From the IMG/VR virus record IMGVR_UViG_2698536301_000009: 8,475 nucleotides of DNA; one strand, given 5' to 3'. A program made the translations under genes and the position numbers. Shown here piece by piece: positions 847-8,278 of this stretch. Source of the stretch: a virus. Lineage: Duplodnaviria; Heunggongvirae; Uroviricota; Caudoviricetes. Numbering within the stretch: the stretch's first letter is position 1; each line of letters opens with the position of its first letter. Under the pieces are notes generated by a model, which did no database searches, was not told where the DNA came from, and saw nothing but the letters and a program-made list of their open reading frames with translations.

Positions 847-866
<20 letters not shown>
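1..866 (-). CDS. C: Head protease / minor capsid protein C (lambda gpC-like), 5' portion only; the gene runs off the window start
   Basis: Minus-strand translation from GTG at 866 gives MTAELRNLPHIASMAFNEPLMLEP... and the window start reads ...VLDTEAAVYSGQEAIDAGLADELVNSTDAITVMRDALDARKSRLSGG, matching lambda gpC as I recall it. Start overlaps the 3' end of B by 20 nt, as in lambda. Not in the ORF track because no stop lies within the window. In-frame internal ATGs at 206 and 188 could mark the nested scaffold Nu3 start, but this is not resolved. Confidence 0.85.
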
Positions 867-4549
<3,683 letters not shown>

Positions 4550-5190
4550 TCTGACAGGTGCCTCTCACTTTGGGCGTGGAGCCACGGATGGACTTTGGCC
4601 AGACCGAGCCTTCAATACGTTTGTCGCCAAGGAACGTCGGAGAGCCTTCCTGTTCAATATCCTCATCAAAGGCAGCAAGTTCATCATAACCCGCCACATC
4701 CACTGACTTTTCACGGTAGTTTTTTGCCGCTTTACCGCCCAGGCACCAGAAGCCACGACCATTGGAAAAACGCTTCATAGTGAGCGTGTTATCCCGGTGC
4801 TTTTTGCCATACCACGGAGCCAGCGCCAGCAGCGACGGAATATCGCGGATGGTCGGCTCAACGTGGGTTTTCATAAAGTTCTCGGCATCACCATCCGTCG
4901 GCAACCAGATAAGGGTGTTGCGCTGCTTATGCTCTATAAAGTAGGCATAAACACCCAGCAGCATTTTGGAATAACCGACACGGGCAGACTTCACCACATT
5001 CACCTCACGGATGTAGTCGCTGCCCATCGCATTCATGATGGCCCGCTGAAAGGGCAGTGTTTCCCAGCGCCCTTCCTGGTATGCGGATTCTTTCGGGAGA
5101 TAGTAATTAGCATCCGCCCATTCAACGGCGGTCTGTGGCTCCGGCCTGAACAGTGAGCGAAGCCCGGCGCGGACAAAATGCCGCAGCCTG

Positions 5191-5736
5191 TTAACCTGAC
5201 TGTTCGATATATTCACTCAGCAACCCCGGTATCAGTTCATCCAGCGCGGCTGCTTTGTTCATGGCTTTGATGATATCCCGTTTCAGGAAATCAACATGTC
5301 GGTTTTCCAGTTCCGGAAAACGCCGCTGCACCGACAGGGGGATCCCGTCGAGAATACTGGCAATTTCACCTGCGATCCGCGACAACACGAAAGTACAGAA
5401 TGCGGTTTCCACCACTTCAGCGGAGTCTCTGGCATTCTTCAGTTCCTGTGCGTCGGCCTGCGCACGCGTAAGTCGATGGCGTTCGTACTCAATAGTCCCT
5501 GGCTGGAGATCTGCCTCGCTGGCCTGCCGCAGTTCTTCAACCTCCCGGCGCAGCTTTTCGTTCTCAATTTCAGCATCCCTTTCGGCATACCATTTTATGA
5601 CGGCGGCAGAGTCATAAAGCACCTCATTACCCTTGCCACCGCCTCGCAGAACGGGCATTCCCTGTTCCTGCCAGTTCTGAATGGTACGGATACTCGCACC
5701 GAAAATGTCAGCCAGCTGCTTTTTGTTGACTTCCAT
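5191..5736 (-). CDS. Nu1: Terminase small subunit (lambda gpNu1)
   Basis: 181-aa ORF MEVNKKQLADIFGASIRTIQNWQEQGMPVLRGGGKGNEVLYDSAAVIKWYAERD..., matching lambda gpNu1 in length and sequence by recall, including the N-terminal winged-HTH region. Its 3' end overlaps the A start by 26 nt, as in lambda. Confidence 0.93.
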   Translation of the reverse strand: MEVNKKQLADIFGASIRTIQNWQEQGMPVLRGGGKGNEVLYDSAAVIKWYAERDAEIENEKLRREVEELRQASEADLQPGTIEYERHRLTRAQADAQELKNARDSAEVVETAFCTFVLSRIAGEIASILDGIPLSVQRRFPELENRHVDFLKRDIIKAMNKAAALDELIPGLLSEYIEQSG

Positions 5737-5913: not shown

Positions 5914-5925
5914 AGGTCGCCGCCC
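5914..5925. other. cosN: the 12-nt cohesive-end sequence (aggtcgccgccc on the plus strand = reverse complement of lambda GGGCGGCGACCT)
   Basis: Exact match to the lambda cohesive end as recalled, flanked on the right by cgtaacctgtcg (lambda right-end terminus) and on the left by cccgcgaggt... (lambda left end). The sequence is continuous across cos. Confidence 0.85.
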
Positions 5926-5960
5926 CGTAACCTGTCGGATCGCCGGAAAGGACCCGCAAA

Positions 5961-5977
5961 ATGATAATAATTATCAT
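5961..5977. repeat. Short palindrome atgataa-taa-ttatcat in the cosQ-proximal region
   Basis: 7-bp perfect inverted arms with a 3-nt spacer, read directly from the sequence, about 36-52 bp from cosN on the right-end side. I could not place cosQ exactly from memory. Confidence 0.4.
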
Positions 5978-6124
5978 CTGCATGTCACAACGTGCATCTA
6001 CGCCATCAAACCACGTCAAATAATCAATTATGACGCAGGTATCATATTAATTGATCTGCATCAACTTAACGTAAAAACAACTTCAGACAATACAAATCAG
6101 CGACACTAAATACGGGACAACCTC

Positions 6125-6358
6125 ATGTCAACGAAGAACAGAACCCGCAGAACAACAATCCGCAACATCCGCTTTCCTAACCAAATGATTGAACAAATTA
6201 ACATCGCTCTTGATCAAAAAGGGTACGGGAATTTCTCAGCCTGGGTCATTGAAGCCTGCCGCCGGAGACTGTGCTCAGAAAAAAGAGTTTCTCCTGAAGC
6301 AAACAAAGAAAAGAGTGACATTACTGAATTGCTCAGAAAACAGATCAGACCAGATTGA
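6125..6358 (+). CDS. Small basic hypothetical protein, possibly a ribbon-helix-helix DNA-binding protein; cos-proximal accessory ORF
   Basis: 77-aa ORF MSTKNRTRRTTIRNIRFPNQMIEQINIALDQKGYGNFSAWVIEACRRRL... Arg/Lys-rich N-terminus, then a short strand-like IRNIRF followed by two helix-like segments, an RHH-like layout. Family membership is my inference. Weak GGGA ribosome-binding site 8 nt upstream. Local sequence is AT-rich compared with the head genes. Confidence 0.55.
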   Translation: MSTKNRTRRTTIRNIRFPNQMIEQINIALDQKGYGNFSAWVIEACRRRLCSEKRVSPEANKEKSDITELLRKQIRPD

Positions 6359-6414
6359 AGCAATTTAGATAATCGTGCAGACTACGCCCCTCATATCACA
6401 TGGAAGGTACTACA

Positions 6415-6825
6415 ATGGCTCAGGTTGCCATTTTTAAACAAATATTCGATAAAGTGCGAAATAATTTAAACTATCACTGGTTTTATTCTGAACTAAAACG
6501 TCACAATGTCTCACATTACATTTACTATTTAGCTACAGAGAATATTCATCTTGTTCTTGAAAACGATAATACGGTTTTAATAAAAGGACAGGGTAAGGTT
6601 GTAAATGTAAGATTTTCAAAAAATAAATGCCTTATAGAAGCCACCTTAAAAGGATTCAAATCAGGAGAGTTATCATTTTACGAATACAGGAAAAATCTTG
6701 CTACAGCAGGGGTTTTCAGATGGATTACAAATATCCACGAAAACAAAAGGTATTACTATACCTTTGATAATTCATTACTCTTTACTGAGAACATTCAGAA
6801 CACTACACAAATATTTCCGCACTAA
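6415..6825 (+). CDS. Hypothetical protein, possibly YbcV/DUF1398-like (the lambdoid 'putative envelope protein' family)
   Basis: Track ORF is 6400..6825 (141 aa). The second ATG at 6415 follows a GGAAGG Shine-Dalgarno-like motif (6402-6407) with 7-nt spacing and gives a 136-aa product [18 protein letters not shown]... The family assignment is from memory of similar prophage proteins and is unverified. AT-rich codon usage. Confidence 0.6.
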
Positions 6826-7081
6826 ATCATAACGTCCGGTTTCTTCCGTGCCAGAACCGGACTCGCTGGCATGATGAAATATGTGTACCCGGTAACCCCG
6901 GTGTGCATCGTTTTTGATTATTCCCGCACACTCGCGCAGAAGGAGTTCCCCGTCGGGCTACGGTCTCTGTTAATACGGGAATACGGCGACGATACAGCGC
7001 ATGATGTGTCAGGCTTGAATACCTTTATCCTTTAAAAGGGATATCAGTTAAGTTATCCCGTGTAGGGTATAAACCATTATC

Positions 7082-7108
7082 AAAGCCACTCTGTAGGAAG
7101 TGGCTTTT
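7082..7108 (+). terminator. Candidate rho-independent terminator for the plus-strand accessory ORFs
   Basis: aaagccact (7082-7090) pairs with agtggcttt (7099-7107) around an 8-nt loop ctgtagga, followed by a T; 9-bp stem with a short T tract. It sits between the convergent plus-strand ORFs and the minus-strand lysis genes. Confidence 0.35.
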
Positions 7109-7316
7109 GTAATGGCAATAAAAAGCCCCGCGAATGCGAGGCTAAATCCTGGTATTTGTAATGACTGGCTCTTATCTCAACGCAGCCCCTTACCGCGCGC
7201 AAAATGCTCAATATCAAGCATCAGCAATGAGATGTTTAATCTGGATTCACTCCAGAAGTGAGCACCACCCTGTCTACAGAGCCAGATGTGAAGGATGATG
7301 AGTAAAATTATCGCTA

Positions 7317-7784
7317 TCATCGAAGGCATTGCGTCCTGATGTATTCCTGAAGCGTTCTCAGTGCTGTTTGGTCGCGGATAATTCCGTCCCGGACACCGAG
7401 AACGTTTCGTCCAGCAACTGGAGAGAGTTCGACGGTGGCATCATTGCCCATGCCGGAGGCGCTGGAGGTTTCGGCTGAGGATGGCACAGGGCATTTTCCT
7501 TTGACGAACACCCGACCACCATTATCAAGCTTGCGCCGAAGAGCATCATTTTCAGCTTTCGCATCAGCTAACTCCTTCGTGTATTTATCATCGAGTGCAT
7601 CAGCATCACGCTGGCGCTGCTGCATGTCAGTAATGGTGGCGTTCGCCTTCTCCAGTTCACTGGCCTTGTTATCGCGCTGTTCTTTGTAGGCGATTGCATT
7701 ATCACGGTAATGATTAACAGCCCATGACAGGCAGACGATGATGCAGATAACCAGAGCGGAGATAATCGCGGTTACCCTGCTCAT
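7317..7784 (-). CDS. Rz: Spanin, inner-membrane subunit (Rz-like, i-spanin)
   Basis: Track ORF 7317..7796; the likely start is ATG at 7784 ([31 protein letters not shown]...), which overlaps the R stop (ATGA). N-terminal transmembrane segment then a coiled-coil-like charged region, related to lambda Rz by recall. Confidence 0.9.
7358..7564 (-). CDS. Rz1: Spanin, outer-membrane lipoprotein subunit (Rz1-like, o-spanin), embedded in the +1 frame of Rz
   Basis: 68-aa [24 protein letters not shown]... with a signal peptide and lipobox (VVGC) followed by a proline-rich stretch [11 protein letters not shown]. Lies wholly inside Rz in a different frame (7784-7564 = 220, not a multiple of 3), the classic Rz/Rz1 arrangement. 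Confidence 0.8.
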
Positions 7785-8278
7785 TGTTGCCCCCACAAAC
7801 AGACCTCACGCTCAATCTCACGACGAGTCATCAGGCCTTTCCATTGCTTACCGCCAGCGTATGCCCAGCGACGTAGCTGGTCACATGCGCCCTTGATATC
7901 GCCCTGGTTTATTTTGCGAAGAAGAGTAGATGTTCTGAAATTGCCTGCGCCCACGTTATAGACGAACGAGTAAAGAGCGCCGCGCGTTGTTTCCGGTATA
8001 TCGACTTTGATGTACGGGTTAATTTGTCTGGCTACCGTGGCAAGGTCTTTATTCAGGAGGGCTTTGCATTCTGCTTCGGTATACGTTTTACCGGGAATGA
8101 TGTCTTTTCCTGTATGCCCGTGACATACAGTCCATACGCCAACGATATCTTTGTATGGTATGTAGCTGACACCTTCCAGACCATCGTTACCACTTGGGCC
8201 AGTGATTAACACTGATGCTATAGCAATTGCTCCGCCACCAATAGCAGCAGCAACGGCTTTTCGTAATGATGGAGGCAT
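7781..8278 (-). CDS. R: SAR endolysin (phage 21 R-type, T4-lysozyme fold / GH24 muramidase)
   Basis: 165-aa [57 protein letters not shown]... The Gly/Ala-rich weakly hydrophobic N-terminal segment (about residues 8-27) fits a signal-anchor-release domain; E35, D44 and T50 sit in the catalytic-triad positions of R21-type lysozymes. Near-identical to phage 21 R as I recall it. Confidence 0.93.

Follow-up and report, generated by a model that had tools for sequence, protein, structure and literature searches.

The virus record IMGVR_UViG_2698536301_000009 of IMG/VR provides a stretch of 8475 bp (hereafter the window), which is a lambda-family phage or prophage in reverse orientation with its late genes on the minus strand. 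At positions 5926-7316, between cos and the lysis gene Rz, it carries a block with two plus-strand genes, a ynfO-like gene of the DUF3950 family and a ydfO/ybcV paralogue of the DUF1398 family. We found that this block is, with a probability of roughly 0.75, the standard right end, adjacent to cos, of a lambda-family (nu1/A-type) prophage with the layout of the K-12 prophage Qin; the mechanistic part of this reading is less certain. The reading is drawn from family memberships, synteny, modular boundaries, purifying selection and the absence of bor, which were observed directly, and the identity and ordinariness of the block rest on direct sequence matches. The block is thus already known as the usual lambda-type right end, Qin-type and bor-less, with both open reading frames (ORFs) in named lambda/K-12 families. 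Its features and its cos border are as follows.

5914-5925, minus strand: cosN cohesive-end sequence GGGCGGCGACCT, an exact match to lambda, just left of the block
5926-5960: cosQ-side part of cos (packaging-termination signal), GC 0.60, near-identical to the lambda right end
5961-6124, plus strand: AT-rich 5' region of the ynfO-like gene, GC 0.36, about 95% identical to lambda, Qin and DLP12
5962-5978: palindrome ATGATAATAATTATCAT, conserved in lambda-type loci, with a weaker version in lambda
6125-6358, plus strand: ynfO-like gene, 77 aa, DUF3950 (YlcI/YnfO family), with a conserved core in codons 1-49 (6125-6271) and a Qin-type C-terminal tail in codons 50-77
6415-6825, plus strand: DUF1398 gene, 136 aa; an in-frame upstream ATG at 6400 would give 141 aa
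6826-7001, plus strand: 3' spacer inherited together with the DUF1398 gene and homologous to the spacer between ybcV and bor in lambda/DLP12 (81-82% identity)
7074-7115, plus strand: strong hairpin resembling an intrinsic terminator, GCCACT...AGTGGC followed by TTTTGTAAT
7117/7118: module junction and cargo slot between convergent terminators, empty in the window
7124-7143, minus strand: terminator-like hairpin and T-run downstream of Rz, an 8-bp stem with 6 GC pairs followed by TTTTTATT
7177-7329, minus strand: 50-aa ORF (PGAP hypothetical WP_001139678.1, annotated in the near-identical prophage L001; phrog_11822), overlapping the Rz stop

The GC content of the block is 0.405 (40.5%), against a mean of 0.561 (sd 0.024, minimum 0.518) for non-overlapping 1391-bp segments elsewhere in the window. 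The dip is uneven: GC falls to 0.311 in the DUF1398 gene and to 0.360 in the 164 bp upstream of the first ORF, and is higher in the 6826-7001 spacer (0.540) and on the cosQ side (first 35 bp, 0.600). Both plus-strand ORFs, 6125-6358 (77 aa) and 6400-6825 (141 aa from the upstream ATG), are antisense to the late operon, and the 491 bp of 6826-7316 hold no ORF of at least 60 aa, the largest being 54, 53, 50 and 45 aa long. These results agree with the original prediction, made from the letters of the window, of an AT-rich block with two ORFs opposed to the late genes and about 490 bp lacking an ORF of that size, yet PGAP calls a 50-aa hypothetical protein, 7177-7329(-), inside the latter. The description of the block as accessory DNA between cosN and Rz holds for its coordinates but not for its first 35 bp or so (5926-5960), which are the cosQ side of cos, and the idea of a special cargo block was not borne out, the same gene pair being conserved backbone in lambda, DLP12 and Qin. 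Parts of the block occur in 4,505 of 5,426 complete E. coli genomes, at least 80% of it in 1,000 of them, and phage Kati carries it at full length with 99.4% identity. Since the block is this prevalent and bor is present in 3,498 of the 5,426 genomes, a right end without bor is an ordinary variant.

Domain searches assigned both ORFs. The 77-aa protein matched PF13132 (DUF3950; 70.7 bits, E = 9.2e-20, cut-off 25) and NCBIfam NF041551 (33.2 bits, cut-off 30), falls into phrog_949, and is identical to K-12 YnfO at 72 of 77 positions and to YlcI at 53 of 64. With these profile matches above the cut-offs, the K-12 identity and the synteny, it can be placed in the YlcI/YnfO family. The second protein matched PF07166 along the whole profile (positions 1-119 of 119, 147 bits, cut-off 22) and, over residues 1-140, the nuclear magnetic resonance (NMR) structure of K-12 YdfO (PDB 2HH8, E = 1.4e-69). 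It is identical to YdfO at 102 and to YbcV at 105 of 136 positions (75-77%) and can be assigned to DUF1398 (PF07166; YbcV/YdfO/YcgX), as had been proposed from the letters. The third K-12 paralogue of this family is ycgX (PMC3509220). The true start of the gene is probably the second ATG at 6415 (136 aa), because a GGAAGG Shine-Dalgarno sequence lies 7 nt upstream of it and the resulting length is that given by PGAP and by K-12 YdfO and YbcV.

Database labels present the DUF1398 protein as a virion component: phrog_413 and the RefSeq lambda entry NP_597781.1 read 'head protein', and GenBank has 'putative envelope protein'. A virion role is scarcely credible. The gene runs opposite to the late operon and is kept in cryptic prophages without head genes, stand-alone chromosomal homologues are found far from phage genes, and 2HH8, which was deposited under the title 'Hypothetical protein ydfO', is the NMR structure of a small soluble protein. 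In a CRISPR interference map of lambda, the homologue lambdap78, like bor, was non-essential for plaque formation, and its knock-down had no effect (efficiency of plating 1.9 and 1.3; PMC10695390). The stand-alone occurrence, the antisense orientation and the non-essentiality lead us to doubt both labels, which look wrong and should not be propagated.

The DUF1398 gene is under moderate constraint (dN/dS 0.21-0.39). An exhaustive HMMER search of 1.84 billion representative proteins returned only 189 clusters at E <=0.001. Every named member of a distant subgroup comes from Enterobacteriaceae, and the distant genes that we looked up are stand-alone, of low GC and chromosomal, without DUF3950 nearby. 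The Shimwellia gene stands beside an AraC regulator and a Mla-like transporter, and that of Pseudocitrobacter follows an aryl-polyene cluster. On a low-GC contig of Salmonella Kentucky (L013/L014 78-800, 1485-1880), some 700 bp separate a distant DUF1398 gene (35% identity) from the gene for a SopE-family effector of the type III secretion system.

DUF3950 likewise occurs where DUF1398 is missing, in prophages and Stx phages whose packaging relies on an HNH endonuclease, TerS and TerL. There it lies 41 bp from the start of the HNH gene, and in every case no other antisense gene stands between lysis and packaging. At the nucleotide level, its homology with the window begins exactly at the ATG and ends at codon 45-49. 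The core (codons 1-49) is under strong purifying selection, with a dN/dS of 0.04-0.14 at a dS of 0.8-1.3, and the C-terminal tails vary among lineages. The gene always adjoins the packaging module at its first gene (nu1/cos or HNH-TerS-TerL), in phages whose terminases are unrelated, and it has stayed intact in ancient cryptic prophages. From these arrangements, DUF3950 emerges as the constant of the lysis/packaging junction and DUF1398 as one optional downstream cargo. The ORF is unannotated in many Stx-phage records, and lambda NC_001416 has, at complement(48109..48303) beside cos, an unannotated 64-aa YlcI/YnfO ORF that shares 91% of 55 aligned residues with the window protein and has a core identical to K-12 YlcI.

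Because DUF3950 and DUF1398 each occur without the other, a toxin-antitoxin pairing is unlikely. As a type II toxin-antitoxin or abortive-infection module, the pair would combine a ribbon-helix-helix (RHH) antitoxin (DUF3950) with a toxin (DUF1398). The order of a small DNA-binding-like ORF followed by one of about 136 aa and the prophage location fit such a module, the RHH antitoxins MazE6/7, KacA, ParD and RelB are weak structural neighbours of the 77-aa model, and DUF1398 has a weak HEPN_AbiA_CTD match (E = 0.014, below cut-off). However, DUF1398 is solo in chromosomes and DUF3950 in HNH-type and Stx phages, the two genes are separated by 56 nt with no overlap, and in lambda and DLP12 the opposite-strand gene ybcW intervenes. 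The pair had no PADLOC match, knock-down of lambdap78 was without effect as described above, and YdfO overexpression is cited (PMC4077768, its ref. 32) as increasing oxidative-stress resistance, that is, as protective and not toxic. We regard the module as very improbable.

The fixed place beside the first packaging gene in phages with unrelated terminases raises the question of a packaging accessory factor, with DUF3950 binding DNA at or near cos or the terminase genes in lytic growth. The strong purifying selection on DUF3950 is in line with this role, and so is its listing in capsid-forming phage-inducible chromosomal islands with their own TerS/TerL (PMC13612085). The gene is antisense to the Q-antiterminated late transcript, which makes co-expression with the packaging genes impossible, and it has stayed intact and under constraint in DLP12 and Qin, two prophages that no longer have functional packaging genes. 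The HNH gene of HNH-type phages stands between DUF3950 and TerS, and the only sizeable gap (about 290 bp) is that between HNH and TerS, where we assume cos to lie, after HK97-like phages. A packaging role is therefore improbable on this evidence.

The original prediction had also called the 77-aa protein RHH-like. The DUF3950 core resembles the RHH proteins Arc and Mnt of phage P22 in its size of about 50 aa, its basic N-terminal arm and its N-x-R-[FWM]-P motif closing a putative strand, which is followed by two helices with a G-containing turn; hhalign placed them in the same register. The AlphaFold2 model has helices at 19-32 and 34-52 at a pLDDT (predicted local distance difference test) of about 87. 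DUF3950 gave no significant sequence or structure match: BLASTP of the 77-aa protein against Arc returned no match, hhalign against Arc plus Mnt gave a probability of 0.4% (E = 0.16), Pfam found no RHH family in any of 26 DUF3950 members at E up to 10, a PDB profile search of the 77-aa protein returned no RHH entry, and no strand was predicted in the monomer model. DUF3950 also differs in lying at the lysis/packaging junction, not in immI, and no operator was found. An RHH fold is plausible but unproven.

The same prediction had regarded the two ORFs as candidates for host-interaction functions, and as lysogenic-conversion or anti-phage cargo they might serve host interaction or superinfection exclusion. 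The block is moron-like in being AT-rich and antisense to the late genes and in having its own terminator, the adjacent slot holds bor or a GIY-YIG nuclease gene in other strains, and one distant DUF1398 gene lies beside a SopE-family effector gene. Transcription from cryptic prophages is on record for the K-12 paralogues ybcV/ybcW, ydfO and ylcI (PMC7660256, PMC4077768, PMC12288877), which bears indirectly on expression from a repressed prophage. The paralogues are stress-responsive (PMC4077768, PMC7660256): ydfO was induced 116-fold by ionic liquid (PMC4077768), and in a pdhR mutant the ybcV and ybcW mRNAs fell about 10-fold, with PdhR SELEX (systematic evolution of ligands by exponential enrichment) peaks there and within ydfO (PMC7660256). 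When T4 MotB perturbed H-NS repression, ybcV and ybcW rose more than 1000-fold (PMC7827196), which is consistent with AT-rich, H-NS-silenced DNA. ybcW and ylcI are reported to form a transcribed convergent pair (PMC12288877). Against a cargo role, a PADLOC-DB search of the pair gave only chance-level matches (E >=0.016), neither protein has a signal peptide or lipobox, and in lambda, DLP12 and Qin the pair belongs to the conserved backbone and not to the variable cargo. Classical work on lambda lysogens detected expression of only cI, rexAB, lom and bor (PMC7067206), and no knock-out phenotype for the pair was reported in the literature searched. The moron-like features keep the host-interaction proposal in view, but the missing defence matches and the conserved backbone leave it a small chance, and conversion or anti-phage cargo is a decidedly doubtful reading of the pair.

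The 491-bp stretch after the DUF1398 gene can be read as the 3' spacer of that gene, two convergent terminators and the tail of the lysis cassette. The prediction that bor is absent was confirmed: the best tblastn match of lambda Bor in the window had E = 0.34 and lay outside the block, and 5926-7316 contained no ORF with a signal peptide and lipobox, the only genuine one in the scanned range being Rz1, outside the block. The only remnant of a bor locus is the upstream spacer with a degraded promoter. The bor promoter annotated in HK629 is TGGACA-N15-TACAAT and its window counterpart (about 6960-6987) is CGGTCT-N15-TACGGC, which reads as a decayed copy. The 54-aa ORF at 6871-7035 is disrupted by indels in lambda.

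The hairpin at 7074-7115 has 17-nt arms that are 88% complementary and a folding energy of -21.1 kcal/mol (z = -5.24), which 0 of 200 shuffled sequences matched. It is likely the terminator of the ynfO-ydfO unit and, being palindromic, can in principle act on the minus strand too. The hairpin on the minus strand, 7143-7124(-), reaches -15.2 kcal/mol (z = -2.6) and is kept after Rz in two other loci, L007 and L008. The left half (7002-7117), which follows DUF1398, and the right half (7118-7330), which follows Rz, were found independently in other genomes. E. coli 2018-11-1BCC (L009 3503-3991) has a GIY-YIG nuclease gene between them in an otherwise identical arrangement. Because the halves are independent and can be separated by such a gene, the point near 7117/7118 is an empty cargo slot. 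Elsewhere the slot holds bor (lambda, DLP12), gnsB-ynfN-cspI (Qin) or an extra gene (L007), and the GIY-YIG gene shows that it accepts varied cargo.

The 50-aa ORF of the right half always travels with Rz, next to PBSX-type, P22-type or P27/HNH-type terminase modules. It is open in four diverged copies with a dN/dS of about 1.15 (13 non-synonymous versus 3 synonymous changes), suggesting that it is probably not a constrained protein and belongs to the lysis-cassette tail. It may be a non-coding tail or the 3' untranslated region of a lysis transcript ending at the 7143-7124 terminator.

At the opposite end, window position 5926 aligns with the last lambda base, 48502, and with the cohesive end at 5914-5925 the block begins exactly at the right cohesive-end nick. 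The cosQ heptamer is presumably at 5949-5955 (AGGACCC, reverse complement GGGTCCT), equivalent to lambda 48473-48479. cosQ is required for packaging termination (PMC4669245, PMC9026076). A strict scan for plus-strand sigma-70 promoters found none, and the best relaxed site in 5961-6124 scored only 8/12. On the minus strand, a sigma-70-like site at 5988->5961 (GTGACA-16-TATCAT, 10/12) overlaps the palindrome ATGATAATAATTATCAT and is directed across cosQ and cosN into nu1.

As a mechanism for this right end, ynfO-ydfO would be a self-contained two-gene unit with its own transcription antisense to the late operon, ending at the 7074-7115 hairpin, normally silenced by H-NS and derepressed under some stresses. 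The 50-residue DUF3950 core would form a small dimeric DNA-binding protein of the RHH kind, with an Arc/Mnt-like N-x-R-F-P strand and two helices. YnfO would be expressed from the prophage without use of the late promoter and would exert its regulation at, or from, the lysis/packaging junction; we infer this dimeric regulator with moderate to low certainty. Simple autorepression by YnfO is disfavoured because there is no co-inherited upstream operator. DUF1398 would be AT-rich accessory cargo that lytic growth does not require and that can work independently of YnfO. DUF3950 spans lambda nu1/A phages and HNH-TerS-TerL phages including Stx phages, and a bolder form of the idea gives it the role of a dedicated 'junction regulator' in lambdoid phages: it would be a DNA-binding protein like Arc, and its gene the sole antisense gene at the lysis/packaging boundary. 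In the lysogen it could shield the packaging and head genes against read-through or control the adjacent cargo. We hold this tentatively and consider it rather unlikely.

To the left of the block the window runs from portal through W-like, terminase large subunit and nu1 to cos, and to its right come Rz/Rz1 and endolysin.

847-2448, minus strand: portal gene (late operon)
between the portal and terminase large-subunit genes: W-like head-tail joining gene
between the W-like gene and nu1, minus strand: terminase large subunit (gpA homologue)
5191-5736: nu1 (Pfam Phage_Nu1, E = 9e-101)
7317-7796, minus strand: Rz
7358-7564, minus strand: Rz1
7781-8278: endolysin

The gpA homologue contains a 643-bp tandem duplication on the minus strand (copy 1 at 3715-4357, copy 2 at 4358-5000), whose copies differ at about 14-17 positions (roughly 2% divergence). 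As 643 is not a multiple of 3, the gene is split into ORFs at 4284-5216 (310 aa) and 2648-4549 (633 aa); in L001 it is intact (1926 bp). Either the prophage is defective and two related copies recombined unequally to form the duplication, or the duplication is an artefact of assembly. At 425/427, in the S49 peptidase/gpC-Nu3 region, the window lacks 55 bp found in L001 (2090-2144), and this loss is a second frame-breaking lesion in the head genes.

Two observations concern the databases. The apparent DUF3950-DUF1398 fusion clusters P0014 (761 member sequences) and P0010 are probably an artefact of gene calling or of an alternative code: in P0014 the ynfO TGA is translated as W and shares its frame with the upstream ATG of Qin-type ydfO, and TGA read-through may occur in Qin-type loci. 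Dozens of singleton, noisy YlcI and DUF1398 variants came from ENA contigs of about 3.4-3.6 kb; these variants probably represent the lambda right end with many errors, for example from a sequencing control amplicon, and inflate the apparent diversity of the families.

What is mildly novel in the block is DUF3950 only, a constrained and position-fixed antisense gene in many lambdoid and Stx phages, whose YlcI homologue beside cos is missing from the lambda reference record and which is a cheap, well-defined target for functional study in K-12 or lambda.

Among known systems, the block shares with the morons bor and lom a deviant base composition (0.405 versus 0.561 GC), its own terminator (7074-7115), transcription opposed to the late operon and presumably independent of it, and dispensability for lytic growth (PMC10695390). 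It differs from them in that the ynfO-ydfO pair is conserved in lambda, DLP12, Qin and thousands of E. coli prophages and not sporadic, no convincing promoter was found for the pair, and the pair is not among the lysogen-expressed genes detected classically (PMC7067206).

In lambda and DLP12 the right end reads Rz-bor-lambdap78/ybcV-lambdap79/ybcW-(unannotated) ylcI-cos-nu1. The window is about 94-96% identical to it from 5926 to about 6290, with cosQ and cosN identical or nearly so, and the DUF1398 gene with its 176-bp 3' spacer is 80-82% identical. However, a segment of about 560-600 bp with the late-strand gene ybcW, absent from the window, lies between the two genes, YlcI has 64 aa and another tail, and bor is present with its own promoter, whereas the window is without bor.

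The K-12 prophage Qin is the closer counterpart in layout. Its slot between ydfO and Rz holds gnsB, ynfN, ynfR, ynfQ and cspI, whereas that of the window is empty, and the ynfO stop is in frame with the upstream ydfO ATG (42 nt) in Qin but out of frame (41 nt) in the window. The Qin sequence nohA-ynfO-ydfO-(gnsB, ynfN, ynfR, ynfQ, cspI)-rzpQ has the order and orientation of the window, YnfO is also 77 aa long and the 72 of 77 identical residues include those of the C-terminal tail, YdfO is 75% identical, and the nu1/nohA and cos side exceeds 96% DNA identity.

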